From Schmidtea nova (Eukaryota): a DNA stretch of 64,000 nucleotides. The first letter of the stretch is position 1. Each line of letters begins with the position of its first letter. The stretch spans positions 494,078,001 through 494,142,000 of the forward strand of contig CM097882.1 of assembly GCA_044892505.1 (NCBI GenBank). The letters run 5' to 3'. Both the position numbers and the translations under genes were made by a program. Positions 2,452-55,592 of this stretch are shown one piece after another. The notes under the pieces are model-generated. The model saw only the letters and a list, made by a program, of their open reading frames with translations, did no database searches and was not told where the DNA came from.

Positions 2452-4311
2452 TTATTGTGCCTTTTGCAACAGATAGTAAAATAGATCCTTTATTGGACAT
2501 AGGGTCAGAATTTTTAGAATAAAATTGTTCCATAGCCAATGTAAATTTAGTTTTATCTTGAGGTTCAATAATATGGTGCTTGTGTTGTATAACAGAATGG
2601 TAAATATCAAAGCTTTCTCATTGTTTTCAATACATTTCTTCATCATTCCATAAGATTGAAAGATAACTAATAAACCACGCGGAATTACTTTGACTAAATT
2701 TAAAATAGCATTTCCAAGAAAATTTGTAAAGGCTATTTTCTCGAGTCAAATAGCTGGAATTTAGAGTTTCACCATCAGCACCTTTAGTGCATACCGCCAC
2801 CATCATATGATGTGCATTTATTACATGACTATTACACAACTCTTCTTCAAAATTAATATCCATGTCCAATTTCAGAGTTTCTATTGGATATAGAGTTCCA
2901 CTCGTTAGTATAATGCTACGAACATCATAATTAGACAATGATTTCAAGGTGCGTCCTGGAGTCATACAACAAAAGACTAAGAATTCGATTTTTATCCACA
3001 TTCTTATTAGAAGCCCAATTGAATTTATTATTGTTTTTGGTTCAAGTAGAAATTTCATTTTCCTGAATAAAAACTCGATAACAACTCGATAGTTTCTTTC
3101 CTAAATTAACAATCGAATCTAATTAATCGCTAATTTCATCAGAGAAAATAGTTTTCATGAATTCTTCTACTTTTTCCAAGCCTTTAATACCGTGTTTGTC
3201 AGATTCGTTTCAGATGACATTTCTTTAAATGAGGAACACTTTTCCAGTAAATCAATAAAATGTGACTTGTTGAAATGATTAAATCAACAACGACAGTTGA
3301 AATAGAAAATTCACTTCGACAGTCAATCCAGTCGTTTCATTGCTTCCCAAATCAATAAAATTAAATTCGGATTCCAGAAGACATAGGTTTTGTTTCAGTT
3401 GAATAATTTGAGTTAAATCTGGAATTTTATCGGATTTCGTTTTATTCTCATCGATTATTGTATCTGTTGATTGGGTTGCATAGATATATTCACCGAAGGC
3501 TTTTAATTCTTCTATACAACTAGCAATATTGATCGATGTCAGTTGAACAGAAGCCCTATCTTCACAAACTTGACAAATATGACAATATTTCCTTGTAAAT
3601 TAATGTTGTAAAGAAGTCTGATTTTCGAATCCAGTAGGTAATTGTAGGGAAATAAAAATCGGCTGAATCAAACATTTCTCAAGACAGGAAGTAAGGACAG
3701 ATCGATTTCTTTTTGTCAATTGTTAATAAATCTTCAATATCAGCTATGTTTGTTTCATTTGAAATAGTTTCTTTATCTTTTTCAAATTGATTGTAAAAAT
3801 AACATCTGCGAGTTTTTACACGAGGTTTACATCCGTATATTTTCGCAGTATTTGATTCGAGATTTATAACTTTCGGATTGATACAGAGCTCTTCACGAGA
3901 TGCAATCAAACCAACTTTCCTATTACAATAAGCCGTTCGTTTCAATGCATTTATACAGTGAGACAGTTGGGAATGAGTTCTGGAGAAGTAAATTATTTTC
4001 GGAATTGAGCTGATTTTCGTTAAGTTTACTTGAGATTTTTCCAATTTACTCCAACATTGATTGCAGTTTGAATTGAGATGCAATAAAATTTCATCGTCGG
4101 AATTAATTGTAGAAGTTTTCTTCATATAATCCTGCCATGCGAGTGCTGCACAGAGTAAACAAAGAGTTTTTCCTGCAACGGTTTGAGATTTCAAAATAGC
4201 GTGTTTATTGCCTTTTAATGAATCAATAACCTTTTCCATGTATATTATATGAGATGGATAAGGTTCAAAGAGAAAATTTATTGATATGTCACGAATAGTG
4301 ATAGCTGACAT
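2452..4311 (-). pseudogene. RTEL1: Intronless, disrupted copy of RTEL1 (XPD-family Fe-S helicase), 3'-truncated
   Basis: ORFs 3679-4311 and 2627-3058 and the frameshifted stretch between them give FEPYPSHIIYMEKVI, GKTLCLLCAALAW, IIYFSRTHSQLS, ASREELCINP, CPYF, PYNYLLDSKIR and RSIILTSGTLYP. Walker A is degenerate (KSQTVAGKT), DEAH is deleted, and there are several stops and frameshifts. Confidence 0.88.
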
Positions 4312-4350
4312 TGATAAAAAATCAAAAGAAAATTTAAAACATCTGAATTA

Positions 4351-4500
4351 AACTCACGCTTGATAAAGGCTGTGCCGAAATATTGTGTACTTGTTTAAAG
4401 AAATTTTGATCTATAGTATTACCATTTTGGGAATTATTGATATTAATATTAAAAAAGATCAAAGGTGAAACAAAAAGATAATTATGATAAGGCATGTTTA
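4351..4500 (-). repeat. Arm of a foldback/MITE-like repeat also found at 57604-58488 and 61384-61596
   Basis: Shares cttgataaaggctgtgccgaaatattgtg...tttgatctatagt...aaaaaagatcaaaggtgaaa with 58240-58372. Confidence 0.8.
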
Positions 4501-5516
4501 ATAATTTATTTTAAACAAATCCAAAAAGATTTTTCGTCAAAATCCGCCCAGTCAAACACCAGAATTTTAATCATAATATNNNNNNNNNNNNNNNNNNNNN
4601 NNNNNNNNNNNNNNNNNNNNNNNNNNNNNNNNNNNNNNNNNNNNNNNNNNNNNNNNNNNNNNNNNNNNNNNNNNNNNNNNNNNNNNNNNNNNNNNNNNNN
4701 NNNNNNNNNNNNNNNNNNNNNNNNNNNTGTGAAATGAGATTTAGTTAATGATTTAAAAGAGTAATTAATGAAAAGGTCGCTTTACCAAAATTACTTAAAT
4801 GTGAGCCAAATTATAACATCAAGTTAGGTGAAGAGACTCGAGAAGACTTTCTTAAAAATGGAGATCCAGTTTCAATTGCCGTAAAACTACAAAATTTGAT
4901 TTTAAATTATCATTCATTTCTTAAAATCATAGTGTTATTCTAGATTAGCATGCTATTATAAATAAAGTCTCTCAGAAGCTAATACATGAATAAAATACCA
5001 TAGAAAAAAAGACTTTAAGATGCATTGAAAAAATCAAATGACTTCTACCTTTAAGAAAGCAAAGACAGTATCAAATTGAAGAATTAGAATTGACCATGAG
5101 GTATTAAAAGAAAATCTAATAGAAACAACATTAAATTAAAGAAAGTTAAACTAAAAATGTTGGGCCAGGCAAATCAGTCATCATCTAAAAAGTAATATAA
5201 AATCAATGAAATAAATTTACAGAAAAACAACAACAAAAATAAATTACCATCATCAAATAGTCAGCAATACGCGGCTGAATCTGAAAACAACAAAAGAATA
5301 AATCAAAATAAAGTAACAATAAAAACTCGCCCATGCGAATCAGATAAATCTGAAAATATGACAGGACGTGGGCGAACATCATCGAAGATCTAAAATAAAA
5401 TAAATCATAACAAAAAGAAAATTAACGCATGGTTAAACAAACAACTTACTGAATTAAATCATGCAGAAAGACTGACGAACATAAATGAGTAACAATAAAT
5501 GCACACATACTCGATG

Positions 5517-5570
5517 CTGATTGACCAGCCAACATCACCAATTTAGTATAAATACTGAAGCGAAATCAGT
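5517..5570 (+). promoter_or_regulatory. Putative Pol II promoter of copy 1 (CCAAT-like box, TATA, Inr-like TCAGT)
   Basis: CTGATTG 5517, TATAAATA 5547-5554, TCAGT 5566-5570. Same order and spacing at 30261-30316, 38284-38337 (minus) and 43621-43670. Confidence 0.6.
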
Positions 5571-6469
5571 ATGAGGGTCACTTTTTACCAATCAATCAAT
5601 TTTTACCGAGTGTAATTGTCAGTGGAACCTGATACTGTAACTTTGTGAAATCTAGTTGTAACGAAATAAAAGGTATAGTTGATTTCATTGTTACTTTTTT
5701 TGAACCCTCATAATCATACTAAAATCGACAAGGATCGTCCCGAAGGCCTAACGGTCTGACGGGATTCTCGGCCTCTCGGCTCAACATATTTTCATATGAG
5801 GTGCTGATGCGGCGGGACCCTAGGTGTAATAACTATTCATCGATCGGGAGTGGGGTGCACATGGGATATCGAGAAACGTCGGGTCGACAAATTTCATCCG
5901 AGGTAGAGGTAATCTAGAATATATACTACCGGCCACAGAGAACTCAAGAGAATGGGGTGCGCATAGGATGTAGTGGATCAATACGTCGAACGTGTATCCA
6001 ACCATATGCATACAATCGATAACGAACATCATGATTTACCGAGAATTAGAGGCGAGGCAACACCAAAGGGTAAGGCAGTTGGTGCATGTATACTTTATAC
6101 AGAGGTTAACCTTTACGGGATCCGAAGTCCTAATTAACCCTAAAGAGCGATGATCATTGGTAGATACAGATGAGGCTGATGACAAAATGATGATGTATGC
6201 ATGGTGAAAATAGAGATAAAAATTGAGAAATAAGTAATACAATAAACGACAGTATATTGATCATAATGTGTGATTAGAATGACTGAAAATAAATTTTAAA
6301 TAAATCAACAACTAGTGATCAGCAGTAGCAATAACACCATCCTACACGGTCTATTTCGCCGATCGAAATGTGGTTAACCGGCTGGATACTAGACACCCAC
6401 TTGACTGAGAACAACTAGCTCGCCAATCTGCGTGGAATGATCCACTATAAATAGAAACCAGCATCACTA

Positions 6470-7141
6470 ATGAATATTCAACAAAATTATTTACAGATGA
6501 AACGCGAAAGCATTATCACCCCGATGCCAACTTCGTCTCTCCAGCAGCAACCAGGTCGCGATAAGACGAGTCAGAAACGCATCCGATCTATGCCGGAGCG
6601 ACATGCCGATAACCAAAGAAAAGTGGAATTGCAGGGGGTGAAAGACGCACCCATTCCGATTGTCCGGCAAGCTCATCGACACCTCCGCAGATGGAGACGA
6701 CGACACTCTAATCCAGCGGCCAGAGTCGCATCGTGCTCGGTTACGTTCCGACTACGATGGGAAGGAGATGCGGAGTGGATACCATCGTCGAGCCAGCCCA
6801 ACCTGAACCTTTCGCGATGGTTCATCCAAATGACAGATGATGCCGGACAACCTCGCTGGATACTATGCTCCGGAATCATGACGGGCCCCGCGTTTTACGG
6901 GCTCGGATATCTTCTCCTGGATAGGCCCCGGTGTAGCGACACTGGGGAAATCCAGCTCTATCCTCACGCTCCAGGGAGCGTAACATTGGAGCCCAATCCA
7001 GAGCCGAGCGAACTCCGATTATGGGAGGTGTTTGCACACAAAGATAAGCTTTGTTGGCAACCGTCCCCGGAACTATACCAAGCCGACGGAAAGAGACGGG
7101 ATGACCGAAACGCGGATCAAGAATTGCGACCTTTCTTCTAG
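6470..7141 (+). CDS. ORF-A of the TG...CA family, unknown Trp/Arg-rich protein (223 aa)
   Basis: Open frame with clear homologues at 36744-37302 (minus) and 31161-31685. Shared W.G.A.W and G.P...F..LG motifs; WFI.M.D in copies 1 and 3. Confidence 0.75.
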   Translation: MNIQQNYLQMKRESIITPMPTSSLQQQPGRDKTSQKRIRSMPERHADNQRKVELQGVKDAPIPIVRQAHRHLRRWRRRHSNPAARVASCSVTFRLRWEGDAEWIPSSSQPNLNLSRWFIQMTDDAGQPRWILCSGIMTGPAFYGLGYLLLDRPRCSDTGEIQLYPHAPGSVTLEPNPEPSELRLWEVFAHKDKLCWQPSPELYQADGKRRDDRNADQELRPFF

Positions 7142-7348
7142 GAGGAAGATGTTCGTATCCGAAAACACCAAATCCAATGTAATTGTGTCATAAATGGATA
7201 AATTTTCCTTAAAAAGTCTTGTTATGATTTCCGAGTAATTGCCGACGATTGTTTGAGTTGATAGGAAGTTGAATTATAATAACGACATAAATAGGAACCA
7301 ACCAACAATCAGGTCTTCACAACTCAGATTAAATACCCATTTTTGTAG

Positions 7349-7887
7349 ATGAATACGGAAAGCTCTCGTGATTACAAGAAAGAGGCACGTGAGCACAAGG
7401 CCCACTCTAAGGTTCTCGAGAGCCGATTGCGCCAGTTGAACGAAGAACACCAGCGCGTCAAGACCACTTGGTTCAGCCCAGAGAGGGTCAAAGCGATATT
7501 ACAAGCCCGATACCGAGCCGAACGGATAGCCGAAGAACAAGCGAGGGAAATGGCCGCAGTCAAGCTGGAACTGCATAACTACCTAAAGGTATCCACGCAG
7601 GAGTTCGTTACCCAGCAATTGCGCCCAATGATCCGGGCGAGTACATTCAATAGATGGGTGGATACGATCGCCATCACTACAAGTACCCAGACGGAGACAG
7701 AGTCGAACTCAACGATGACTACCCCAACCGTATCAAAAGGACCAAGCGTCGCAATCGCTTAGGGGCGAAGAAACGACGTGAGCGCAGAGCGTATGCCGAA
7801 CGACTAGGCATCGAAGTGGATTTGCTAAGCGGACTCACAGAAAGCCAGTTATTAGATGTGATTAGACCGTCTGTATTCTTAAACTGA
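7349..7887 (+). pseudogene. ORF-B of the TG...CA family (coiled coil plus Arg-rich C-terminus), one frameshift
   Basis: 7349-7762 and the overlapping frame ending 7887 together match the intact 185-aa ORF at 35783-36340 (WFSPERVKAIL; KRRNRLGAKKRRERRAYAERLGIEVDLLSGLTE). Confidence 0.78.
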
Positions 7888-8054
7888 AAATAAATGTATA
7901 ATAGTTGATCAACTTGATTTGTTTGTCTGTGGTATGTTGGAAAATAAATAGCAAAGTAAATTAAACCGATTCATTTTGTGCTACAGGTACCCCGAAATTG
8001 GGTTTACCCTAGCAGAGTTAGAGGAGCGCATTATAAAGGGACCGAGAGAAAGCC

Positions 8055-8240
8055 ACAGAAACCTTCTAGCGGTAGTGGTGGACCCGTGAATAAACAAGGG
8101 AATAGTAGCCGCGAGGTTGCTCACCTGCCTTGTCATTTCACAACGTTGACACAGCACCAACATGATGAGTAGTTAGGGATACATCATGGGTGTCAGCGGT
8201 GAGATGTTTTTTATGTTGGCGAGATCACCCTAACCTATAA
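8055..8240 (+). other. Conserved structured non-coding module near the 3' end of copy 1
   Basis: ACCTTCTAGCGG 8061-8072, GGGAATAGT 8098-8106, GCTCACCTG 8119-8127, CAGCACCAAC 8152-8161, stem GTTAGGG 8172-8178 / CCCTAAC 8228-8234. Conserved in the other copies. Confidence 0.6.
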
Positions 8241-10799
8241 AAATCCAAATGATCTCAGTTGTCCATCTAACTAACACACCAGCAAAAAGCAAAAATTCTT
8301 ATTAGTTAGATGCAGACATTTCATATAGAGATTTTATATTAATGAACCCAATGACTGGGACAGAAAGTAAGCCTTCAAGATATCCTTGATAAGTGATTTA
8401 TAAGATTCAATAATCTTAGCCTTGAAATTGTCATATGCCGATTTTATTTCAACAGTCTCTAAGATGTACATGGAAAATATCTGAAGAATATTTGAAGAAA
8501 CCTTCAAAGAGCTAAATCGAAACTCGAGCGTTGCAAACAAGCATTTTAAAAGACCTTGAATCTCTAAAAACTAGGGAAGCATGTGACAGTGATTTTATTT
8601 TTATTTTAAAAAATAATAATTTAAGCAAATTTAGAATGATCTTCAAAAATCTTCAGCAAAAGAAGCACGTTACAATTTATTTGACAAAACCTTTCTGAAA
8701 GCAAAATTGACCAAAAAAATTAAACCAAAACCATAAATATTCGTTATGAAAACTTAAAAATTGACAATAAGAAAAGTTTTATAAAGTGGTTTGATAAAGT
8801 ATGAAAAGTATTCAATGATACAACCGAGCGGGAATGAGTCGAAATAATAATTTTTGGTGAGTTATTAATTGACAAAATAGTTAAAAATAATTTTCTATTA
8901 GGGATTTTTGAATAATTTTCATTTTTGATATAAAGACTAAGTCAAAAATATCTTTTAGTGTCGTAAACAGTCTTTTTGATCTAGTATTTTTAAAAAAAAT
9001 AAAAATTTCTAAAATAGAAAAGAGATCAAAGATGAAAAAATAAAAGTTTTAAATGATAAAAAACATGCTACGATTTTTTTTCTAAATGTCAATAAGTGGA
9101 AAGAATTTGTTATTGGAGGTGTATTTCAATAAATTAGTCTTTTTGTAAGCGGTTGAAAATTGTAGTTGGTTAATTTCTTAACCAGGTGCCGTAATCGGAC
9201 CCCATTAAATCCGTCATTTTTAGATAACCTAAATTTATCAATACGGTAAGCGCGCCATAAATGACTATCAAGATGCATCCTTGAGCCTTTCGTAAGATAT
9301 AAAATATCCCCCGATTATCGATATACAAAATGGTACAGATTATTATGAGCACATATATTTTATACAGTTTATTAGGTACCAACTCCAATTTACTTTCAAT
9401 TTAATATATATAATGAGATAATGATGACTGCTATCTGAGACACATTCAGGCCAAATATCATCGAATTAACTTGCAGATTGACAAAATATAAATTAGAATG
9501 TATAAAAAAGCTTGTGCTAAATTATTATGAACACTTTAGTTTTTAGCCCTTTACACTTTATGGATATTATATAGGTTCCTTCTCTCTGCTTTCCAATTTC
9601 CATTGACTGTTGTGAGATGGAAGAAGATGACGGAGAGTGGTCTCTGTTGTCTCACGTAGATACAGTTTATATTTTCATTGTGGAACGCTGATTGATTAAT
9701 TATCTTTCTATTAAAAGTACGCATTTATCTCTCTATTATTTCTCTTGTTTCTTGTAGACCACATTCTGATGATAAAAGAACATACAAAAGGCGATTTGAA
9801 GATAAGGAATTGATAGAAAAAAGTATAAGCATTTTATAATTTGCTCAAAACAATAGTTTATTTTTATATTTGGTTACACCCACACCTTTAACTTTATTGA
9901 ATGCTATATATTTTTATTCTTAATGATGATGGAATAAGTCAAATTCAAACTCAGACAAACGTGTTCAGATGCTTGGATAATATTTACTTTAGGATAATAA
10001 GAATATTATATTTTGAATTGTATCAAATTTAATTTATTTATTGTGCTTGCATTTAATTGTTATTAAATTTAGCCTTATATCCTAAAAGAGTAAAAAATTT
10101 CAATAAATTGAAAAAATGAAAAATGTTATTCAATTTTTATTATCGGACGATTCCAACTTCATCAAGTAATGATAAAAGTAAATATATTTATTACAATAGT
10201 GTCAATTTTACAATTTTAGAATTATCTATTTTGTTTTTTAAAAATATAATATTACCACAGAAAACGAAAGTAATGAGACTTACAAACTAAAACATCCGAT
10301 GAGTATGAACTTTCCAATATATAAATATCAGAGAATAAGCATAATAATAATTAAAAATTTAGAAAAACTAAAATAGAGAAAGATATGCGATTAGTGCAGA
10401 TAAATTCGCTTTGGAAAAAAATGAAACGTAGACACAGTACTTGCAGTACGCCCAACCTCAGAATAGCCCAATCATAAATGGCCAATAAAGGGTTGTAGTG
10501 GGGATTCGCGAGTTTTGTAGGCGTCACTGTTCTTTCCGTGTGAACATTGGTACAATTAAAATCTTATTTTTATTTTTATTTTCGAAAATTCAAATAAATT
10601 TCAAATAGTAAAAATTTTTTGATTTCATGATTTTTGGAGTGCGCGCTAAGTTGTAATCACTGCGCGGAACTTTTAAAACTGCTGCGTGGCCACCCACGCG
10701 CGCAGCTTAGAGGGAACGTTGGTCATGACAGCATCACCAGTTGACATTAGCAAGAGAAAATATTAATTAAATAAATAAATCAGAAAAAAATTATTTAAA

Positions 10800-24810: not shown

Positions 24811-27800
24811 ATTACCCTAATGACAATAGCAATCGTGAATAATGATGACACGATGATTTGATAAAATTAGGAAAAAAATTTTAAAACAACGGCCTATGAC
24901 AATGCTAATAATATTGATAATTCTTTATACTATGAAATTATGAATAATTATGATAATAAATCCGATCGAAATAATAATATTGATAATAATAACTGGAATG
25001 ATGAACATCCCAATCGCAATGACGGTTCCATTACCACATGGTAATGCTGGAGTTGGGAGTAAAAATGAAGATTGCCTTAATTAATCATTTTGTTATATCT
25101 TATTTATCACTATAATAATAATTTTGTCTTATTTATTTAATAATTATTCATTTTATTATTTCATTCATTTATTGCCACGTCTTTTATTTTTAATGATCTT
25201 TTTTATTATTTTATTTTTGTTGTTTTATTTATTTTACTTTTGCCAATGTAGACTTTGTCTGCTATTTACTAATAATGATATTGACGATAATGTGATTCCA
25301 TCATCCTTATATCGCTAAAACGATATTATAACAATTATAATGACAATATTTTAAATTGTATATGGTAATAATAACTGGCCACTTTTAATCGCTGTTCAGA
25401 GGAAGTGTAACCCTAGTTATTGGGAGTTTCTGGTTATTTAGATCTAATTTTTATTCATTTGATATAATATTTATAATGATTAAATTTTTATTCAATATAT
25501 TTTTTTTCATTTGATTTATAGTGATCATTCTCTACGCTGAATACAGTAATAATAGTTGGCAACTTTCAATCGCTGTCTAGGGAAGTATAACCCCAGTGAT
25601 TAAAAGTTGTTAGTTCTTATTTACATTTTAAAATTCAAAATTTTATTTATTCGGTATTTATGTTTTATTTATTTTTTGTTATGGGGTTTGACTGGCGGGC
25701 GCCAATTTAACGCACTGAGACATAATTGCAGTATTTATTTATAAATAATCACATATAATTAATACAATTTTAGTTTATTTTAATCTCCAGCCGCTTAGCT
25801 CCATGTCGATATCTGATAATCGTTTATTCTTTTTCATACACCACACCGTTGATGGTCTGTGTTTCTCCAACGTCGACATTAGATGTTGTAGCTTGCCTTT
25901 TGCGATCCTCCTTCCGTTCCATTGGGCCATATTCTATCGATAATCGAATTCTCGCCGATTTGGTGGCTTCAATCAATTTAACGTTCTCTTCAATTTCTTC
26001 CAAGTACGTTTCAGTTGTCCATTTCAACTTTTGATTCCTCCTTCTGTCCTCGTATCGATTTTCTCCACTTCCATGTTTCTCTCATCTGCGATTATTATCG
26101 TTCTTTCTGAGCTAGGAATATCGGATGTCGATTCCATATTCTTGTAACGAATATTTTCTCGATGACCCTATCTTGGGCATTGATTCGTCATCAATACAAA
26201 GATTTTTGAGTCTTAGGTATTTCTTCTGGTTGGTTGTTGATCATCAATATGACCTTGACGTTGCTATGGCTCACATCAACAACTCAACATACAAAACATT
26301 GAATTAACCATCTTGTTGCCCGTCACAATGTAACGTTGATAATGCAACAAATGGGTGGATATTCGAAATCAGTGAGCGTCGAAAATTTGAAACTATGATC
26401 GATCGAATATCTCCTGGGTCCAAGGGCTACTGATAGAAGGTTTAATGCCCATTTTTGTCCCTTCTTACATGACTTCACTATGAATATTTATTTTAAATCA
26501 GCAAAATAAAATAATTTGATCGATAAAAATTTATTAATTTCTCCTGATCAATCATTATACACGGTATTATGTCAAGACACAATAATTTTCGCGCATTCAT
26601 TTTATTCGCAAGCTCATACTCAAACATATCATCGCAATCTCAATTCAGGGATCTAAATTTCAACCAAAAAAACATATTTTTCGGGGATATTTGATCGCAA
26701 TTATTTTTGTCTAAATAATTATTGATTGCAAGATTTACGATTTCTGTAATTTTTTATATTAAAAACTTTAATAAAAAAAAATTTAATCCCCTATATCTAG
26801 TGTCTATCTTGCTTTATGGATATAATTATAATTTTACTAAAACTTTAATATTTTAATTTTCAAAACTTTGCCAAGGCCTTGACAACGGCAACAGTTATTT
26901 GTCGAAATTTATTAAAGTAAGAACCTTGCATTTTTTCGATATTTAAATTTATGTGTAGATTTTTTAAAATTTTTATGTTAGGGGTCAAATGTTTGTCATT
27001 CCCATATTAGGGTAAAAGACTAATTTTAAGGAAAACTGAAATCTATATCAAACGGAAAGCTAAAATTCCTGGAATATTATTGGATAATTTCTGTTATGGA
27101 AATTGAATTTCCATATTGTAGTTATCGATTTTGGATAACTACTTTTGAAAGAAAACTTTCTCAAGCAACTGAGTTTACTGGTAATTTATATTATTTCTTT
27201 TATACAATAAAACCTCAATGATTTAGGTATTATTATTGACTTATCAAGCTGAGTGAAGTTTCCAGGGTGAAGATTTCTATCAAAACGAAATAGTAAGCCC
27301 TTATAAATCAAATAATCATGCAATTTATAACATGGGTTTTAGTGAAGGAAATTTATTATTCCCACTCGGAGATCAATATGCATATGAGGTACAGAAAATC
27401 TTCTGTGATCGACCTTTGTCGATGGAATGTTCCGTAGCCGTTGGAATTTATTTCCCAATGATTTTTTGAAATTTTTTCCTCCTGAGAAAATGAACAATCT
27501 ACACCGTAGGTACATTCTGTTCGCACCTATGATTACCTTTCGTATTGATTCTGATTTAAAATGTTATTAAATAAATATCTTCTTTTTCTTATTTTGTAAT
27601 TGAATAATTATGGTTATGATTTGTTTATGCTCGAGTATCGGTACTCGTTTTCGCTTTTATTATAATAATGGTGGTAACAAAACGATACCGTGGCAGTAAT
27701 ACAATAGGAATCCGCGAATGGAACCGTTTGCATAGGACCACACGAGTCTCACCAGATGCACCCGATTCCAACTAAAATTACCCAATTTCAAGGGGGGTAT

Positions 27801-29892: not shown

Positions 29893-29895
<3 letters not shown>

Positions 29896-31160
29896 TGGGC
29901 CAGCTAAACAGAGAAAAGTTAAATAAACCTATAATAATTAAAACAAAAAGAGAAAATGTAAGATAAGAAAGGGGAATATTAGATTTAAAAGAAAAGGGTA
30001 ATATAAATAAAATATAGATGAATTACTGGTAAATTATAAATAAAAATAGATAAATTGAGGAGACTTCCAAAATTAACCGGCATAAGAGACACCTAAAAAC
30101 AAATAAAATGTAAATATTAATAATTAAAACAAAATAAAAGTACTTTTTATTAAATAATTGTTCTGAAAAGCCGGACCACCTAGAAAGAATCGAATCTAAA
30201 AAATAAAAATTAATTAAGTAAACAAAATAATAATTGGACCTACGGTATAGACAATCAAACCTGATTGGTCAAGCTAGACCAGACAGATCAGTATATATAC
30301 TGATCATAAATTCAGTCAAATAGAAGATAAGAATAACAAGTTTTAGACAACAGACTAGTATTGACACAAACTGAGACATTTAGATCAATTGCGAATTTTA
30401 CATTGAAACCTATACATTGTCACATTTCAACGGAACTTGGACCCAATCACCAGTTTTCGGATCAATAATCTTGAGCAATTTTTAGTTTGATTTATGTATA
30501 TGCTATTCATGATTTTGTCATAATAATTACATTTGTCATATGAATTATATTTCGTATTAATAATTTTGTTTTCTTAATCTTTATCATACAATTTTATATG
30601 CTAATTTTGTGGTGTTAATGAATTGAATTTTAGAACTTAAATTATGAAATTTAGTGCACCGACTGGGAGCTATAGGTTCCCAGGGTGTCAGTCCGCGTCG
30701 TGGGGCTTAGAGGCTCCACACACGGTAGAGAAATCAATAAAAATAAATTAAAATCTACAGGATTGCACATGGGACACAAAGAATCGAGGCAAACATTTCC
30801 GTTGCGGATAGCAGTGAGTAGGCGAGGGCACTGATTTGAATGAAATGTGGGGAACCAGAATAGACCCGAGAAGCGTTATACGTTAACAAATTTAAATCCG
30901 AGGCTGTTTTTATAGGTACATTAACCCTTCTGTATTATAACCCGACTACAAATAGTAAATTTTCAGCGATGAGAGCCGACAAATAAGCATAATTAAATTA
31001 ATGAAAATATATGTTATTTTCGACTTAATTTCCTCGTCATCAAAAGTGACCTAGTACCTAAGGGGTATAAGTGAAATTAAAATTAAACGAGCGAGGAGAG
31101 ATAATATTAAATTTAACTAATCTACTGTTATAAATGATAAATTTATGATCATCCAGAAAA

Positions 31161-31685
31161 ATGACAAATCGGAAGTTACAAAACAGAAAACGGAGAGTAG
31201 CCAGGACCGAGAATCAGTGGGGCTGGAAAAATGGACATCTAAAGCGGAACCGAGTCCGGGTCAGTCCGCTAAAGCCCGCTCCGTTCGAGATTATTCAGCA
31301 GGTTCACCAGAAAATGTGGGCCTGGAGAAGGGAATTAGAGACGACATGCCCATTCACGGTATGGGATCACCCACGTCATCACGTGTGGTACCAAGGATGT
31401 GCCAACTGGCCCATAATTCCGTGTGAAGAATTTGAGAAATGGCACGCAGAATGGTTTATCCTAATGTTAGACGAACGTGGTTTCCCGACCTTCGTCATCT
31501 ACTGGGGTTACATTCCGGCCTCAACGTTCAGAGAACTTGGAATCGTGTTCAATATCGCGATTCGACCACTCCGGGAAGCCGAAAAAGAAGGCCTGAAGAA
31601 AGCTGAAAATGTCACTACCGACATTAATACCAATCTACAAATCCGAACCATATTCTTATATCGGGGAAAGATGTCTGACGAATAA
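31161..31685 (+). CDS. ORF-A homologue (174 aa)
   Basis: APFEIIQQVHQKMWAWRR / WYQGCANW / WFILMLDERGFPTFVIYWG...FRELG aligns with copy 1 APIPIVRQAHRHLRRWRR / WEGDAEW / WFIQMTDDAGQPRWILCSG...FYGLG. Confidence 0.72.
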   Translation: MTNRKLQNRKRRVARTENQWGWKNGHLKRNRVRVSPLKPAPFEIIQQVHQKMWAWRRELETTCPFTVWDHPRHHVWYQGCANWPIIPCEEFEKWHAEWFILMLDERGFPTFVIYWGYIPASTFRELGIVFNIAIRPLREAEKEGLKKAENVTTDINTNLQIRTIFLYRGKMSDE

Positions 31686-31931
31686 TTTAATTTAATAAAT
31701 TTTTTTAGCAAATGTGTGTTCTTTAAATCATTAGATCAGTAACTAATTACAATAATTTAAAACTTCTGGAAGTAGTAATGAAATAAATTAATCAATTTAT
31801 AAAAACCTAATAATTAATTATATTAGAATTTATGGTGTTCATTTCGTACGTTATCTCTAGTATTTATTTAAATAAAATATAGTCGTCGATATAGTTACCG
31901 GTGAAATAAAACATTATAATATTCAGACCTA

Positions 31932-32519
31932 ATGCATTCTACCGAAAACTCCAAGAAAGTTATAAACCAAGTGCAGGAACGGAAGATGAGGGATCAACAG
32001 CGTCAAATCAAGCGACTCACGGTCGCGAACCAGGAACTAAAAACGCGATGGTTCTCTCCCGGACAGATGAAAAGCCAACTGGTAAAAATGGAGCGGCTAC
32101 AGGAAACGTTAACGGAGACGAAGACGGAGCTCGACGCAGTCCAGAGAGAATTACGTAACTATCTAAACTCAGTGACGAGGAGTTACATAGACACCGAACT
32201 GCGCGCATTAATCCGGCCAATTACAACTCAGCGATGGACCCAGAATAAATACCAGGACATTGCAATTGGAACGGAAGACGGACTTATCACGTCGCTAAAT
32301 TCTACTATGGAAGTTCCTCCCGCATCTCACAACAGCCAAACAGAATCAACAGTTCTCACACCCGTAGGCGGTCAACAACAACGAAGGAACCGATTAGGGT
32401 CACGACAACGACGTCGTCGACGAGAGTTCGCAAGACGGATGAACGCACAGATAGACCACCTAGATACGCTAACGGAGTTGGAGTTAATAAATGAAATTAG
32501 CTTGGATTTTATGAAATAG
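31932..32519 (+). CDS. ORF-B homologue (195 aa, intact)
   Basis: Coiled coil, WFSP, ELRNYL, LIRPIT..RW, RRNRLGSRQRRRRREFARRM..ID.L..LTE. Confidence 0.78.
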   Translation: MHSTENSKKVINQVQERKMRDQQRQIKRLTVANQELKTRWFSPGQMKSQLVKMERLQETLTETKTELDAVQRELRNYLNSVTRSYIDTELRALIRPITTQRWTQNKYQDIAIGTEDGLITSLNSTMEVPPASHNSQTESTVLTPVGGQQQRRNRLGSRQRRRRREFARRMNAQIDHLDTLTELELINEISLDFMK

Positions 32520-33260
32520 CATGTAGATGTTACGATGTAAAATAAAATATTTTCTAATTACAGTGTTTACTGGTTTAATATTATCTTTCATCGTGTAAAT
32601 TTTCCTAAATAAATTAACCCAAAATAAGTAAATTGTTGAAGTAACCAGTTTCCTCCTGAATCTCACAAATGACCGTTCCTGCGAAAAGATAGATTAATTA
32701 CCAGATAAAACAAACTACTGAAAGTAAAATACGAAAGTTATGAGAAAGTGTTTTTTTTTATAATAAGGGCATAGAGAACAAAGATTACTAGTGGGATGAA
32801 TATAAGTAGAATGTAAATGCGTAAGACCTTCTATCGGCAGCAAGGACCCGAAGGAAGATAAATGTGGAGTAGTTCTGGTAGCGGAGGGAATAGTCAAGTA
32901 GGGAATAGTCAAGGGCATACGCGTGTCGACGATAAGTTATGTGGGGCTGTTGGCGGGAAATCCCTAGCAACTACCAATTTACATACGTATATTTTATAAA
33001 CCCATCCACAGTCCCATCATATATATAACTTGGTTAATAAAAACTACTAAAAATTAAAAAAAATATTTAAATGTTTAATAAAAAAAATTACTTAAAATAA
33101 AAACTTATTACAATTAACATAAAAATAACTTAAAATAAAAACTAAAATGAAAAACGTTTATTGAACTAAAATAACTAAACTAAACTGACATTAAACTATA
33201 AAACTGAAACTAAAACTGATTACATTAAAAAAAACTGATTACATTAAACATAAATATTGT

Positions 33261-34890: not shown

Positions 34891-35782
34891 TTATTACAAT
34901 CATTAATACAAACATGATTTGTGGTAAATATTTCGAGAACTTAATTTTCAATATAAATCAAAATTTAGTACGATAAAAAATTACTTACCTTACATTCTTT
35001 AATAGTAGATTTAATAATTCTTAAAACAATCACTGCACAGTACAAAAATAAATTATCACTGGTCGCTATATAAAAACTGTTAATTTTAAAAGAAATGCAC
35101 AAGTCACTATTTAAAAGAAACCAAATGAAATAAACTAAACATTTATTAAAATATATTTAAGATTTAAAGCAAATCTAGCGCTATAGATTCTCCAAATTGG
35201 TGACATAACATTCTTGTGATCTACTTTATCCTTGAATTGTAATATAAATAAACCAATTTGAATGGTCTTTATAGTAAATTGATTTAAACACATCATGATA
35301 TCGGCTGTTACGATTGTTAAAGAATACAATTTCATTACTAGTCAAATTTTTATTGACTTTCATCAGAACTTTATTAACAACAACATGCTGGTGCGTTGGT
35401 TAGATGGACAACTGAGATCATTTGGATTTTATACGTTAGGGTGATCTCGCCAACATAAAAACATATCCCCGCTGACACCCATGATGTATCCCTAACTACT
35501 CATCATGTTGGTACTGTGTCAACGTTGTGAAATGACAAGGCAGGTGAGCAACCTCGCGGTTACTATTCCTTTGTTTATCCACGGGTCCACCACTACCGAT
35601 AGAAGGTTTTTGTGGATTTCTTTCGGTCCCTTTATCATGCGCTCCTCTAATTATTCTAGGGTAGACTCAATTTCGCGCTACCTGTAGCACAAAATGAATC
35701 AGTTCGATTTACTTTACCATTATTTTTTCAATCCTTCCATCGACAAGCAAAACAAGTCAACTACTTAAATATACATTTATTT

Positions 35783-36340
35783 TTAATTCAATAACACCGA
35801 AGGATTAATAACGTCCAACAACTGTTTCTCGGTTAGCCCGCTTAATAGATCCACCTCAATACCAAGCCTTTCAGCATACGCCCTACGCTCACGTCGCTTC
35901 TTCGCCCCCAAGCGATTTCGGCGTTTCGTCCGCTTTGACCCTTCTCCCGGTTTCACCATCTCTGGGGTGGTTGTCGAAGTACCGGATTCAATTTCTGTCT
36001 GGGTGCCTGTCGTTGTAACCACGGTATCTATCCATCGGTTGAATGTACTAACTCGCATTAGTGGGCGCAGTTGTTGGGTGATGAATTCCTGGGTGGATGC
36101 CTGTAAATAGTTATGCAGCTTCAATTTTACTGCCGCCGTTTCCCTCGTCTGCTCTTCGGCTATCCGTTCGGCGCGATATCGAGCTTGTAATATAGATTTG
36201 ACCCGTTCCGGGTTAAACCAGGTCGTCTTTACTAAATGGAACTCATCGTTTAACTGACGCAATCGGCTTTCCAACACTTTAATTCGCGATTTATGTTCTC
36301 GGGCTTCGATTTTGTAGTTCCGGGTGCTAGGTTTATCCAT
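35783..36340 (-). CDS. ORF-B (185 aa, intact)
   Basis: Near-identical motifs to the joined copy 1 ORF-B. Confidence 0.8.
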   Translation of the reverse strand: MDKPSTRNYKIEAREHKSRIKVLESRLRQLNDEFHLVKTTWFNPERVKSILQARYRAERIAEEQTRETAAVKLKLHNYLQASTQEFITQQLRPLMRVSTFNRWIDTVVTTTGTQTEIESGTSTTTPEMVKPGEGSKRTKRRNRLGAKKRRERRAYAERLGIEVDLLSGLTEKQLLDVINPSVLLN

Positions 36341-36743
36341 CTAAAGACAAAAGGATTTTATTTATGTCTACATTGTAGTTCGCTACGGGCCCTTCACTTC
36401 CCCTTGTCACTCAGAATACTACCTCGTCACGGTTCTACTTATCCTTTGCTAACAGATGTCCCTTGGCAAAGTACTCCCATCATTCTGATCCTATTCACAT
36501 TCTCACAGACAAACACATTCCCCTTGAACCCATTCACGCAACCCAGTTAGTTACACGCAATCACTGGTTTGCAAACATTACCGTAGTGTCACATTATCGT
36601 ATAGCTCCAATCAACCATATTGAACTCATGCAGACAGAATAAACTCACTCAACCATGCAAACAAATCGATTTCATCAACACGAAGGCTTAATATTATTTA
36701 TTAATCGGCTCACAAATCACTACAAAGTGTCAGTATACTCCGT

Positions 36744-37302
36744 TCAGCAGCATCCATGAAAATCCAGGAGGTCCTGGTCGAGTTGCCGTTCGTCCCGCCC
36801 GGTTCCATCCGGTAGGTATATCTCGGGACATGGATTCCAACATAACCGATTTTTATGGGCGAAGACCTCCCATAGCCTCGCATGATTCTCTTGCGATTGG
36901 GTGTTCATATCCGCATTGCCGGGAACATGTAGGTACGGTCGTCTCTTTCCAGATACCCTACATCTCGGCTGGTCCATAAGAAGGTACCCGAGTCGGTAAA
37001 AATCGGATCCCCGTACGGAGGCATCACTGATTACCCATATTGGTTGATTTTCGGTATCCTCAAGTTGCATTTCCTCGGTCGTGTCCATCCGGGGGTATCG
37101 CCCAGTCGGCGTCGCCTTCCCAACGTATGCGAAGTTTGAAGGATTCAGTTACTGTCCTGGTTGACGGGTCGACATGCCCGCGGATCCACGCTCTTAGGCG
37201 TCGCTCGGCCGATTTTCGTATGTCATTCGGGATGGACGCGGAATCCATTATCTGCCAGCCTCGACGGGTATGGCCCTGTCGTCGTATCCTTTGGGGTTTC
37301 AT
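36744..37302 (-). pseudogene. ORF-A of copy 2, one frameshift
   Basis: Frames 37060-37302 (LRIRWEGDADW) and 36744-37088 (FYRLGYLLMDQPRC, RLWEVFAHKNRLCWNP) match copy 1 ORF-A. Confidence 0.78.
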
Positions 37303-39419
37303 TATCTAAAGTTATTGATAAAAAATCGGCTAGCATCAGAACAGTCGTTTGTCATAACGGGGTGCATACAATCTTTCATTCGACTGAAATTGAAGTCAGC
37401 ATACTCACATCACGCATGTAACCTTTCTAGAAATTCTAAAATCAAATTACCTGGTGGTTTTTTCTTCTTCTTTTCGTAAATCGAGGTGGTGTTAATCTAT
37501 TGCTCACCTGATCGTTGACATATATATGCTTACCCACCTACAGATATGATTTTTGGTGGTTATATGATGGTAGCGAACGTTATTACGTCGATTTTGACAT
37601 CAGCCATCGATTGTTATTGTAGGCCGGTTATAGTATCGCCTCTCATTCTATTTCATTCATTTTTACATCGGCAATTTGGATTTACTTTCATACTGCAACA
37701 TACGCTCTTTCATGCAAATCCGCTCACAACATCATTCAAACAACTTGTATGTAGATCTACGGGGTTGGATTGGGGTATTAGAGGTGTAAATTCGTCCCTG
37801 ATAACCTGATTCTGGGTGGGGTATGTAGTATCGTAGCTCCTTTGTCCTCATTATTAATTCTCATATCCGCTTATGGATAATAGTTAGCTACATGGCCTGG
37901 GTTGTTGTCTATCATCTACGTTCTCGTTTGTCTTTACTTCCTATCTTTGTTCTGTGTAAATTGGTCATAAGAATGAACTATGTGCATCCTTCCCCTCCCA
38001 TTTAATTAGTACACTTATGGTCTCGCCGCATCAGCACCTCGTATAAGAATATGTTGTGCCGAGAATCCCATCAGGCCGTTAGGCCTTCGGGACGATCCTT
38101 ATGGATTTAAATATTATTATGAGGGTTTAAAATAAGTAACAATGAAATCAAATATACCTTTTATTTTCGGTACCGTTACAGTTCTTTGATCTCAATAGAT
38201 TTCAATTCACACTAGTAGGTAAGATAATTCGCTAGTGAAGTAACACTACCAAATTTCGCTGTAATAAAAAAATGACCCTCTCTACTGATTTTACTTCAGT
38301 ATTTATACTACATTGGTGTTGTTGGTCGGCCAATCAGCATCGAGTAGGTGTGTATTCATCGCTACTCATTTAGGTTTGTCAGTTTTTCTGTATAATTTAA
38401 TTCAGTGAGTTGTTTGTTTACTCATGCGGTAATTTTCTTTTGTTATGATTTATTTGATTTTAGATCTTCGGTGATGTCCGCCCACATGCTGTCATATTTT
38501 CAGATTTATCTGATTCGCATGGGTGAGTTTTTAATGTTACTTCATTTTGAATTATTCTTTTGTTGTTTTCAGATTCAGCCGCATATTGCTGACTAGTTGA
38601 TGATGGTAATTTATTTTTGTTGTTCTTTTTGTGTCAATTTATTTCGTTGATTTTATATTGCTTTTCAGATGATGACTGATTTGCCTGGCCCAACAAACAT
38701 ATTGTTTATATATTTTTCCCATCAAATTTGAATATTGTGACTTAACTAAATTGACTGGGTAAAGGAATTTGAATTTAATTTCCTTTTCCAAGAAAAATAT
38801 ATCATGTTCATGAAACTTTTGATATTTGGTTTAATTTCTTTGAATTTTCATTTGACTCAAATATTTTCTTAATTGAAATCAGTTTCTGGAAACGGAAAAT
38901 TGATTGCATTTTATGATGATAATTAATTTTGTCCTTGTATTTATACTCGTTATTTTTCATGTGCATCCAATGTAATTCGTGCATCTGAATTACACATGAT
39001 GTATGTAAGTTTATGACCTGTGTGCATCCATGAGTAATACCATGCTTCACATCTCTATTACAAATGATATTTAATTATAGTTTCAATGAGTTTATTAATT
39101 ATAAAATCTAATATCTAAAATTACTTTTTAATATTCTATCAAAAAAATTACTAGATGTACTATATCAATAAACACAATTTCTAAAAATTACTTTTTCACT
39201 AATAAAAACAATAAGATAAAAATTTTTGTCAAATACATACAAGTCTTAAACAGTAAAAACAAGTTTTAAACATGTACTAAACAATATAAAAACTATTAGT
39301 AAAATTTTAAATAAAGATATACAAGTCTATAATACAAAATAACAATAAACAAAGACAAATTAATTTTACTAAATAAAGATTCAAAAACAATTTCCAAACA
39401 TTTAAAATAAAAACAACAA

Positions 39420-45729: not shown

Positions 45730-46748
45730 TATTGTTATTAAGAGAGTATATCGTCGGGACAGGAAATGGGTGTGGCGACATGGATAGAAGTTATGTTAAT
45801 AAAATTAGATATTCAGAAATACATAAATACTCAAGTAAAGATGGATAGTGAGATACTAGGAAGGTTAAAGCAAAAGATCTTGGACCTGGAAAGCAGTTAT
45901 TTTCCGCCGGCCGAGATGAAAAGAGCAAGAAATAAGTTAGCACGCACAACCGTGGTCATCGAAGACCAAAGGATCGAAATTGCAGCCTTGAAAATCGAAT
46001 TGAACAACTGTAGGAAGTTGACATCCCAGAGGTTTATCGCTGATAACCTAAAGTACGTAATCAGACCAATAACGTTGACAACATGGTTCTCAGTGACAGA
46101 ACAGGAGAAAGAGAGTGCTAATGAGATAACCGATGGAATACCCCGAACACCCAAGAAGAGGCGCAAAACGCATGCGCAGCGGCGTCGTCAAGCGAAAAAG
46201 CGACAGGAGGAAGACCTCAAGAAAACATCGACCAATTCAAGCTCCACGGATATTCTAAAATAACGGACTAACTGACTGAATTGATGTCACAAAAATGTCA
46301 TAATGATTAAATATATGTATTCTAAAATTGCAGTGATTGTTTTGTATAGTAAATGTAGAAATTTCGTAGTATTTAAAATTAATAGTTAAAACCTTTTCCG
46401 ACGAATAAACGAGTATGAAAGATTCGTAACGAGTTGAGAGAAACACCCGAAATTAGTGACCAGCGAATGGGTGAGTGGGGAAAAACCAAGATGACCTTCT
46501 ATCGGTCCTGTAGAACTCGAACGAGCGACAAATCGAGAGTAGTTATGCTAACGAAGCTCACCTGTCGATTTGCGATCGGCCGTCATGCACAGTACCAACG
46601 TAAATAACTAGGGTATTTACGGGTGCGTGGGCGGTAAGGATTTTATGTGCGTGTCCAACCCTAGCAAGAGCATAACCAGGATATAGCGAAACGCAGTGAA
46701 ATTGGAAGGGTTACCATTTGAGTTTATTTCTAACGAGACACGCCAACA
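45730..46748 (+). mobile_element. 3' part of a TG...CA family member (copy 4)
   Basis: ORF-B homologue, ACCTTCTATCGG 46494-46505, GCTCACCTG 46556-46564, CAGTACCAAC 46590-46599, stem CTAGGGT/ACCCTAG, end CGCCAACA. Confidence 0.78.
45766..46263 (+). CDS. Diverged ORF-B homologue (165 aa; probable start 45841)
   Basis: YFPP, LKIELNNC, VIRPIT..W, KKRRKTHAQRRRQAKKR align with ORF-B WFSP, KLELHNY, LIRPIT..RW and the Arg-rich tail. Confidence 0.65.
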   Translation: MGVATWIEVMLIKLDIQKYINTQVKMDSEILGRLKQKILDLESSYFPPAEMKRARNKLARTTVVIEDQRIEIAALKIELNNCRKLTSQRFIADNLKYVIRPITLTTWFSVTEQEKESANEITDGIPRTPKKRRKTHAQRRRQAKKRQEEDLKKTSTNSSSTDILK

Positions 46749-47690: not shown

Positions 47691-49247
47691 GGTTCTTGTT
47701 TGATATTTCCCCCCCCTTAATTGGACTGTCAAATAATTTAAATTTAAATTTATAATAGAATTATACCAATCTATCAGCGTCTGTGTGCGCTGCTATTTTC
47801 TTTATTCGCGTCTGTGTGCGCGTTCTAGTTTGATGTGGATTTTTAATGGAATTTGGTAATTCTGATTTTTAGATTTGTAATTGATTTATTTTAGATTTGA
47901 GATTTAATTGGATTTTAGGATTTGTTTAAATAGTCGAATTGGGAAGTTTTAATTCTTCTGGAAATTTGGATTTAGTTTCGATATTTTTTGGTTCGGGAGT
48001 TATTAAAGTTGAATTTTTGGGACCTTTTGAAATGCTTTCTTTGTTTAGAGCTGTGATTTGAACTTATTGGAGTTGATTCAAAAAATACGATGAGATTTTG
48101 GGAAGTTGGGAGAGGCGAAATATTAGACAGAAATATTTCCCCCCCACTTAATTGGACTGTCAAATAATTTAAATTTAAATTTATAATAGAATTATACCTA
48201 TTTATAAAAGAGTTATACCTACCTATTTAATTCAAAGTTTTATAATAGAATTATTGATCTACCTATGAATGCAAACAATCTATTTGAGCGAACACGGACT
48301 CCGCTGTCAACACTACTACTTTGTCAAGAATTGGGATTGATACCCTTGAATAAACTGTGCACTGTTTGTGGGCAACAAAAAGACTTAGTAGCATGTACTA
48401 AGACCAACTCCCCTTTCCGCTGGCGTTGTAAACGGCCTTGCCGTCTAGAATTAAGTATTCGTGGCGGGACTTTCTTTGAGGCTTCAAAGCTCGATATCAA
48501 AGAAATCCTGTTTTTCATCTACTATTGGGCATACGAGGAGTGTTCCTTCAAAAAGATTCGTCGTGAATTGGGCTGGCACTCACAAGCAATTGTGGATTGG
48601 AAATCGTATTTGCGCGAGGTTTGTGCGCTGCAATTAATGCAGGAAAATTCGGTGATTGGTGGTGAAGGACACGTAGTTCAGATTGATGAATCTTTATTCG
48701 TGCGAAGAAAATATAATGTGGGACGAATGCCCAGGCAACAATGGGTTTTCGGTGGCATCGATTCCACTAAAAAAGAATGTTTTCTGTTGTGTGTTCCTCG
48801 GCGTGATACAGCGACGTTACTGCCAATAATACGTGATAGGACCGCCCCAGGAACAACTATTGTAAGCGATCTATGGGCAGCATACAATACTATCGGTTTG
48901 GAAGGATATAATCACTTGACAGTAAACCATTCGATTAATTTCGTTGATCCCGTCACTTTCGCCAATACGCAAAGAATGGAGAATATGTGGATGAGAGTTA
49001 AGCGTAGAAATAAAAGAGAATGCGGAACGAGTTCTGATTTACTCGATACTTATTTGCAAGAATTCATGTGGAGAGAAAGATTTGGAGGTGATACCTTTAA
49101 GCGTATTATTGACGCAATTAAATTTGTCTTGCTGAATTAATACTATACACAACTATTTTATTACTTATTAAATAAATTTAAATTGCGTATGTTATATTTT
49201 TATTTTATAATTTAATTTTAAGTGGGGGGAAATATCAAACAAGAACC
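47691..49247 (+). mobile_element. Merlin (IS1016/ISXO2-like) DNA transposon, apparently intact
   Basis: TIR GGTTCTTGTTTGATATTTCCCCCC at both ends; perfect 8-bp TSD TAAATTAG. Confidence 0.93.
48265..49140 (+). CDS. Merlin/ISXO2-like DDE transposase (291 aa)
   Basis: N-terminal Cys finger, VQIDES, QWVFGG, IVSDLWAAY, VNHSINFVDP, NTQRMENMW, YLQEFMWR; no stops. Confidence 0.92.
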   Translation: MNANNLFERTRTPLSTLLLCQELGLIPLNKLCTVCGQQKDLVACTKTNSPFRWRCKRPCRLELSIRGGTFFEASKLDIKEILFFIYYWAYEECSFKKIRRELGWHSQAIVDWKSYLREVCALQLMQENSVIGGEGHVVQIDESLFVRRKYNVGRMPRQQWVFGGIDSTKKECFLLCVPRRDTATLLPIIRDRTAPGTTIVSDLWAAYNTIGLEGYNHLTVNHSINFVDPVTFANTQRMENMWMRVKRRNKRECGTSSDLLDTYLQEFMWRERFGGDTFKRIIDAIKFVLLN

Positions 49248-51895: not shown

Positions 51896-51910
51896 TGGCG
51901 ACGAGGATGG
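51896..51910 (+). promoter_or_regulatory. Primer-binding site, probably tRNA-Ser(GCU)
   Basis: TGGCGACGAGGATGG, 2 nt after the 5' LTR, complements the ...CCAUCCUCGUCGCCA 3' end of eukaryotic tRNA-Ser(GCU) (from recall). Confidence 0.7.
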
Positions 51911-54900: not shown

Positions 54901-55592
54901 TATTTTTTACAACCTCTGCAAACGCGGATTTTACGATAGTGGCATTGAGAAAATGTTTCTCGAGAGAAGGAATACCGCAAGTATTAGTCTCAGATAATAG
55001 CACACACTTCAATGCAGAGAAGGTATCTAGTTGGTTAAAGAGTATTGGTACATCTCAAGTGTTTACTCCACTGAGACATCCACAGTCAAATGGTCTGGCC
55101 GAAAACTTCGTTAAATCTCTCAAAACGGCTATTTTAACAGCTCAGATATCAACGAAAGAGGAATTAGATGAAGCGGTAGACACATTTTTATTATCTTATC
55201 GTAACTCACAGCATGCAACGACAAAACACCGACCTTCTGAACTATTCAAGAAAAGAATACTACGCCATCCTATGATCGAGCCGGCGCAGGTCCTATTCAT
55301 CAAAGGCACGATGCAGGACATCCAGCATGGAATCATTATGGACAACAGTTCAAAGAAAATTGTAAAGGTATTGGACACGACAGACGGAAGCGTTCACATG
55401 CGTCATGTTGATCAGATAGTATTGGAACCAAAGAAAAAAGATTTCAATGAGTCAGCAAGTCAAATATCACGAGACAGTGAGGACACGGATAGATCTAGTG
55501 ACGGTACAGGAAATAATGATCAACCCGAATACAGGATAGCGTCAGACGAGAAAATAAAGGAGAAGCGAAAATACAAAAGGAGAAGGTGTTAG
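51907..55592 (+). pseudogene. Gypsy gag-pol in four broken frames
   Basis: ORFs ending 52215, 53527, 54778 and 55592. The RT motif reads NQDD instead of YxDD. Confidence 0.9.

Follow-up and report, generated by a model that had tools for sequence, protein, structure and literature searches.

We analyzed a window of 64,000 nucleotides from Schmidtea nova (contig CM097882.1, positions 494,078,001 to 494,142,000 of the forward strand; coordinates below are within this window). The locus under study is the 3' end of an LTR that has these features:

5158..8284, + strand: solo LTR, 3,127 bp long, from a Burro-like giant gypsy element; TG…CA ends, AAAA target duplication
5547..5570, + strand: TATA box and Inr-like TCAGT, the transcription start inferred from sequence; the TATA box is at LTR +390 to +400 in three long LTRs
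5671..5676, + strand: splice-donor-like AG/GTAT, about 100 nt past the inferred start; like sites are at LTR +513 and +534 in two full-length copies
7349..7887, + strand: ORF2, with a coiled coil, an arginine-rich motif, and a leucine-rich tail; frameshifted in this copy
7889..7894, + strand: AATAAA after ORF2, a candidate signal some 170 nt before the RNA motif

We consider 5158-8284 and 35386-38695 to be solo LTRs because they start with TG, end with CA, and have 4-bp duplications. The first of these is homologous to both LTRs of natural copies in the same genome: hits paired 26 kb apart revealed 29.4-kb elements with 4-bp duplications and LTRs that are 99.8-99.9% identical. In these elements, the primer site begins 6 nt past the 5' LTR and is complementary to a tRNA-Pro gene of the same genome, and the RNA motif ends about 50 nt before the end of the LTR. 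(The tRNA-Pro gene forms a tandem array with a 308-bp unit and 900 pattern matches genome-wide, and the U2 snRNA gene forms another with a 930-bp unit; the two arrays lie at C1:459.61-459.66 Mb and C1:159.98-160.03 Mb.) The ORFs of the 29.4-kb elements include, by Pfam, Gag with a CCHC knuckle, a protease preceded by a fusion-glycoprotein domain, reverse transcriptase, RNase H, integrase, ankyrins, and TRAF/MATH. The closest proteins found are unnamed and 53-56% identical, and the assignment as Burro-like is by architecture, set against the published description of Burro/GYPSM1, which are giant gypsy-like LTR elements of dugesiid planarians (PMC6431247). On these features, we take the motif-bearing repeats to be LTRs of Burro-like giant gypsy elements, which points to a dugesiid planarian as the host.

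Besides the copy at the end of the 5158-8284 LTR, the window holds five other copies of the motif:

22308..22531, + strand: motif copy inside a 655-bp internally deleted solo LTR (21886-22540)
26229..26444, - strand: divergent motif copy of family F, found with a covariance model
32823..33010, + strand: motif copy with an internal deletion, inside a solo LTR (29893-33019)
35395..35610, - strand: motif copy inside the solo LTR at 35386-38695, which has a TGTT duplication
46491..46714, + strand: motif copy of family C

A first-pass annotation of the window had reported five copies, with a set of ordered motifs that survive while the spacers change and four pairs of complementary arms that form a closing stem. 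The copy coordinates and all four pairs of arms are correct. ACCTTCTATCGG occurs at 22311, 32826, 46494, and 35596-35607 (minus strand), and at 8061 with one change. However, the exact GGGAATAGT is in the homologous place in just two of the five copies (8098 and 22350); the site has one change in the copy near 35.6k and reads GAGAGTAGT in the copy near 46.5k. In the copy near 32.8k, both matches to GGGAATAGT are P5-loop sequence, outside the homologous site, and an internal deletion takes out the CUCACCUG segment. The distance from the tail to the end of the repeat is about 50 nt in four of these copies, as had been claimed, and about 83 nt in the 46.5k copy. The sixth copy (26229-26444) was identified by a covariance model built for this analysis (E = 1.8e-10); the same model recovers the other five.

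The window also contains an 860-bp near-perfect palindrome (57635-58497; 93%) of a MITE-like repeat that is present at 4355-4490 and 61384-61596 as well. By eye, we labeled other frames as a separate ordinary gypsy element, helicase-like fragments, and decayed DNA-transposase-like frames (51892-55592, +; 2452-4347, -; 15844-17735, +; 19479-20973, -; and 48208-49140, +).

Across the 1.25 Gb genome, two pairs of motifs at bounded spacing had 1,846 and 3,726 exact matches, and reversed controls had none. These are counts of exact patterns and hence lower bounds (at least 3,726). When four full-length elements were scanned with the covariance model, the motif was found only in the LTRs, at two per element, in all four. 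The distance from the motif to the end of the LTR is 195-277 nt in the 31 of 60 aligned copies where it could be measured. Outside this genome, we found no relatives in viral contigs, a search of viral contigs with a pol relative found none either, and none of 18 pattern matches from metagenomes was scored by the covariance model. A fold of about 180 nt lies at the 3' end of Burro-type LTRs and is present in thousands of copies.

In the copy at the end of the 5158-8284 LTR, the parts of this fold are:

8061..8073, + strand: P1 hairpin, 3-4 bp, with a near-invariant 7-nt loop (one substitution here); one pair is C-G in 34 and U-A in 20 of 60 copies
8080..8086, + strand: conserved joiner G(A/G)ACCCG, which complements the 5' strand of the T-arm of the host tRNA-Pro
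8086..8141, + strand: P2 arm and P3; P2 is 8094-8099/8128-8133 and outer P2 is 8086-8090/8137-8141
8100-8103/8122-8127, + strand: internal loop GRRU/CACCUG between P2 and P3
8104-8121, + strand: P3 hairpin with a GNRA loop
8144-8152/8190-8198, + strand: P4 arm (P4 and P5 together are 8144..8198), with an 8-nt/1-nt internal loop and a conserved CCAA
8161-8188, + strand: P5 hairpin
8172..8234, + strand: predicted pseudoknot, by complementarity of the P5 loop (8172-8178) with the tail (8228-8234)

A conserved UUUAUG (8210-8215) lies between the predicted arms of the pseudoknot, and the 3' tail is a U-rich UUUAUG and then CCCUA. In family F (30 loci), the P1 loop, the joiner, UAGU/GCUCAC, and UACCAAC are kept, the P2/P3 loop is mostly paired up, and the pseudoknot loop is absent. 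In family F, the motif is often present two or three times in a stretch of 1.1 kb, and some of these copies are followed by sequence like an LTR end (L275, L278, L281, L294, and L297).

To describe covariation, we used 192 pattern-matched genomic instances. These reduce to 165 unique copies, which fall into 79 clusters at 85% identity, and one natural copy stands for each cluster. The mean identity of the 79 representatives is 55%. The collecting pattern demanded the anchor motifs (with at most one change in each), so the anchors are conserved here in part because of how the set was built; the pattern placed no demand on the helices. We made a sequence-only alignment of the 79 copies and ranked its 21,321 column pairs with a corrected G-test; nine of the first 10 are helix pairs, and these are 78-96% complementary. 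(As background, 9.7% of all column pairs reach 70% complementarity, and ranks 11-45 are mixed.) For the structural alignment we retained 60 of the 79 copies and dropped 19 by eye, mainly those whose 3' half has deletions or is decayed. RNAalifold, unprompted, gave the same nested fold. With the named structure, 84.8% of 1,912 cells are paired, as compared to 68.7% when shuffled (0 of 500 shuffles) and 33-40% when the structure is slid. There is no excess of pairs in which a double change occurs at all (26 versus 24.0 in shuffles).

Allowing for relatedness by using 30 edge-disjoint pairs on a tree, we found that 61 of 89 double changes are compensatory, versus 5-7 of 54-57 in slid controls. 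All five helices contribute (P1, 3; P2, 15; P3, 9; P4, 23; P5, 11). The earlier claim of a covarying, RNA-like structure therefore holds up, although none of these five helices was on the list in the first-pass annotation. What had been described as a closing stem joins the loop of the P5 hairpin to the 3' tail, so it would be a pseudoknot instead; its arms are as quoted and are complementary in most copies, but most of its core does not vary and the covariation falls short of significance (odds ratio 1.7, p = 0.27; 5 compensatory changes versus 1-2 when slid, across the same 30 independent pairs). Folding energy gives weak support (z = -2.3 for the window's copy; mean of -1.1 in 20 of the 60 copies).

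These data also bear on whether the motif works as DNA, as promoter, integrase, or transcription-factor sites or as a minus-strand single-stranded structure, with the stems being incidental. In favor of this, a TATA-like word is found 30-40 nt upstream in 16 of the 79 representatives, and the excess of G-U over A-C is not significant once an invariant pair is excluded (96:80, p = 0.26). But the 61 compensatory changes across five helices are not explicable by integrase or transcription-factor sites, and a Pol III B-box is present in at most 5 of 60 copies. Furthermore, among four-nt P3 loops, 28 of 33 are GNRA on the plus strand and none on the minus strand, so the fold is a plus-strand RNA, and the single-stranded DNA option of the first-pass annotation is disfavored. 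We consider the DNA-level readings to be largely refuted and very improbable.

The motif is also far more conserved than its surroundings. Between related elements, it is 95-99% identical, while the 400 nt upstream, which are mostly coding, are 60-80% identical, and the sequence that separates the motif from the basic motif of ORF2, or precedes them, is 60-86% identical. A 12-kb non-autonomous element has a motif that is 92% identical to that of an autonomous family, versus 46-55% for the rest of the LTR. Between distant families, the motif is 61% identical. In one pair of elements, the motifs are about 1% different, and the four-fold sites in pol are changed at 42 of 489. Recombination may add to this pattern. 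Overall, this is a conserved plus-strand RNA fold with five covarying helices that is under selection; its covariation, position, and conservation support the earlier suggestion of a conserved cis-acting structure at a U5-like LTR end.

What might the fold do? In long LTRs, the features come in this order: TATA box (near +400), donor-like GT about 100 nt on, a second structured motif, ORF1, ORF2, AATAAA, and the RNA motif. Short LTRs (1.4 kb) keep the promoter, the donor, and both structured motifs; the ORFs are absent. ORF2 is predicted to be helical, with a flexible linker and then an arginine-rich helix. A homolog of ORF2 lies within 1.4 kb upstream of the motif in 56 of the 79 representatives and, among the 165 unique copies, in 123 (reversed controls, 0); the other 23 representatives had no ORF2 match. 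In the most divergent family there is, by eye, an ORF2-like frame with a similar basic motif upstream as well, and the profile missed ORF2 in family F. A leucine/isoleucine-rich tail, a candidate export signal, follows the basic motif in most families but not in family C (by eye). Among three copies of family A, the basic motif and tail are 91-97% identical, which parallels the 95-99% for the RNA motif, versus 62-68% elsewhere in ORF2. We did not detect any homolog of ORF2, nor any match by homology or fold to Rev, Rex, Rec, or CERV. Its basic motif may resemble that of Rev.

We also note other features of these LTRs. ORF1 (about 160-220 aa; 6455-7141, +; 36744-37148, -; and 31149-31685, +) has no Pfam match. 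Between two elements, the LTR ORF region is 76-80% identical and the internal region is 93% identical, so the ORF region diverges faster. The second structured motif (5725-5822, +) comprises GCCUCUC, a variable hairpin, and GAUGCGGCG, with another hairpin before; it is 190-300 nt past the TATA box and just past the donor-like site, in both long and short LTRs. It is also present at L031, L035, L120, L125, L130, L132, L142, and L147, and it has no match in Rfam. At the same place, family-D LTRs have a different GC-rich hairpin motif (near 1139 of L100 and near 6523 of L263, both on the minus strand). One of these two copies contains GGUGCAAGUCC, which is presumably twister-sister-like, and the other lacks it.

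We tentatively propose, by analogy, that the fold is the recognition element of the unspliced genomic RNA and would be bound by ORF2 so as to license export and packaging, as for Rev and its response element (RRE); we favor this reading, though we give it less than an even chance. Transcription would begin near LTR +420, and splicing from the donor about 100 nt past the start would yield short mRNAs for ORF1, ORF2, and others. If some of these mRNAs end at the AATAAA upstream of the motif, then the fold would be confined to unspliced RNA that has been read through. ORF2 from a short mRNA might then attach to the fold and direct the 26-kb RNA to leave the nucleus. The fold is also kept by non-autonomous relatives, which have no ORF2 of their own and would borrow it. 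We rank this reading first because the basic motif and the fold are linked and co-conserved, because the fold is kept in elements that lack ORF2, and because there is a precedent in the CERV protein of the gypsy element Cer1, which is required for export of genomic RNA (PMC10309623). The donor-like GT upstream and the 52-65 AUGs that two long LTRs have from the TATA box to the LTR end are also in its favor.

Several points argue against a Rev/RRE-like role. A basic motif can be just a nuclear or nucleolar signal, and linkage together with recombination can produce co-conservation of adjacent sequences. Several loops hardly vary from family to family even though the basic motifs do, as if a further partner that stays constant were involved. 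The distance to the end of the LTR (195-277 nt) is tighter than an export element needs. Also, ORF2 has no match among Rev-like proteins by homology or fold, 23 of the representatives have no ORF2 match, and the profile missed ORF2 in family F.

The narrow distance to the LTR end would fit better if the fold were a U5 platform that is read by Gag and reverse transcriptase and that presents complements of the T-arm and D-loop of tRNA-Pro after the 3' end of the tRNA has annealed, with the same logic as the PAS of HIV-1 or the Ty1 boxes (PMC11251516, PMC3592414). The primer site, 6 nt past the LTR, complements the host tRNA-Pro, and the joiner can pair with nt 49-55 of this tRNA (a 7-bp match). 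The one freely varying position in the core of the joiner is A in 48 and G in 12 of 60 copies, and both pair with U (the rough chance of this is 0.02, post hoc). In the 28 copies outside families A, B, and G, 5.8 of 6 pairs can form between the tail and the D-loop of the tRNA, versus 4.25 between the tail and its own loop. However, in the 28 copies from families A, B, and G, the tail's own loop is the better partner (5.3 versus 4.7), and an unfocused shuffle test of complementarity to the tRNA was not significant (p = 0.29 and 0.12). Seven of eight natural 5' ends have a second T-arm-complementary box 25-26 nt past the primer site, in which C/U wobble is tolerated, unlike the CCC of the joiner. 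(This box is GAAYYC, with C/U wobble variation, in L010, L011, L026, L037, L101, L111, and L166.) Primer loading also leaves the P1 loop, CUCACCUG, and UACCAAC unexplained. A role in primer loading and packaging is possible but somewhat unlikely; it is close behind the Rev/RRE-like role, and the two are compatible.

The invariant loops might instead belong to a catalytic RNA. The motif has the pattern of a ribozyme, with variable helices, near-invariant joiners and loops, and fixed spacing (a span of 43-44 nt among the 100 matches listed), and a pseudoknot in the fold would also be suggestive. If so, docking of the P1 loop with both conserved internal loops could form an active site, and the fold would be a self-cleaving or otherwise catalytic RNA, of a new class, by which the transcript of the element is processed. 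Retrozymes, which have hammerheads in their LTRs, are a precedent (PMC6765202). An unknown ribozyme had been raised by the first-pass annotation. On the other hand, no known ribozyme family in Rfam matches the motif. In a pattern scan, the hammerhead core was present in 1 of 60 copies and an HDV J4/2-like sequence in 7 of 60, and a group II domain 5 core was not supported either. Cleavage shortly before the primer site would part U5 from the linear genome, and the altered P2/P3 loop and missing pseudoknot loop of family F also count against catalysis. The non-autonomous element matches its helper family's version of the motif, which suggests reading by a specific protein. We doubt that giant env-bearing LTR elements carry in this fold the founding member of a new ribozyme class, one that processes RNA by the primer site, possibly under control of the arginine-rich protein. 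If it does self-cleave, it would be a new class of ribozyme.

It seems still less likely that the fold lets ribosomes enter internally (as an IRES) or otherwise controls translation of ORFs past the primer site. In favor of it, there are 52-65 AUGs from the TATA box to the LTR end in two long LTRs, and in three elements a RING ORF starts 320-570 nt past the LTR. MMTV reportedly has an IRES in its 5' UTR. But no ORF directly follows the fold, splicing from the upstream donor could serve the downstream ORFs, and the motif does not match the IRES families in Rfam.

Other origins for the motif were considered and rejected. It shares just one 6-mer with the host U2, so it is not derived from U2. 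There is no tRNA call, and the rarity of the B-box (at most 5 of 60 copies) does not suggest a tRNA-derived or Pol III origin. The TATA-like word, at 30-40 nt upstream in only 16 of 79 representatives, does not indicate a promoter immediately upstream. We also searched the leader and the surroundings of the PPT and found no long-range partner for the invariant runs that is common to four elements. In four sets of contigs of unrecorded kind, no GT..AG joint was present among the alignments listed, and we give no weight to a spike in depth over the motif.

The fold appears to be undescribed. Covariance models from Rfam 15, including those for ribozymes, IRES, RRE, CTE, tRNA, and snRNA, did not match the motif (the best hit, with E = 1.6, is to an unrelated snoRNA), and searching the whole window, the motif alone, and six other loci yielded just chance matches that are like miRNAs or snoRNAs. 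In the full-text literature that our search covered, no RNA fold or basic ORF is reported for Burro LTRs; the original Burro paper and its supplements were beyond this search and may cover the LTRs. In the passages available from two other papers, Burro is mentioned just for its expression and abundance (PMC8532177, PMC11410931). This is a large and well-supported fold, absent from Rfam, in an abundant family of elements, and its helices and invariant bases are already defined by dozens of variants found in nature. Should ORF2 prove to bind the fold, then a Rev/RRE-like switch has evolved in a gypsy element, wholly inside the LTR and outside of the retroviruses; this would be relevant to the nuclear exit of a 26-kb unspliced RNA and to the independent rise of the kind of regulation seen in complex retroviruses.

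As described in the portions of the Burro/GYPSM1 account available to us, those elements are like the host of the motif in size (about 29 kb), Gag-CCHC, a fusion-glycoprotein region before the protease, the order protease, reverse transcriptase, RNase H, integrase, the ankyrin repeats, and an ORF with TRAF/MATH; these portions cover internal domains and mention neither an RNA fold nor an arginine-rich ORF in the LTR (PMC6431247). Other LTRs with a conserved structured RNA module include those of TRIMp3 elements (Cassandra, Helenus, and Ajax), which are derived from small RNAs (PMC10886601), and those of the retrozymes, with their hammerhead (PMC6765202). In contrast, our motif lacks similarity to tRNA, 5S, or U2, Pol III boxes, and the hammerhead core, and its hosts are large and autonomous. 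The PAS of HIV-1 and the extended primer-binding region and 5' pseudoknot of Ty1 are also structured RNAs by the primer site with segments that complement the T-arm and D-loop (PMC11251516, PMC3592414); the LTR fold is much larger, its complementary joiner sits upstream by about 200 nt, and a T-arm box distinct from the joiner lies past the primer site. Finally, the RNA export systems Rev/RRE, Rex/RexRE, Rem/RmRE, and Rec/RcRE, along with CERV of Cer1, resemble the proposed Burro-type system in having a structured cis-acting RNA past a donor-like site and a small basic protein encoded by the element (PMC6478720, PMC10309623), although CERV is a large protein with another architecture than ORF2 (PMC10309623). 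The putative Burro-type system differs in that the protein and the RNA are adjacent inside the LTR and in that ORF2 matches none of these proteins by sequence or fold.
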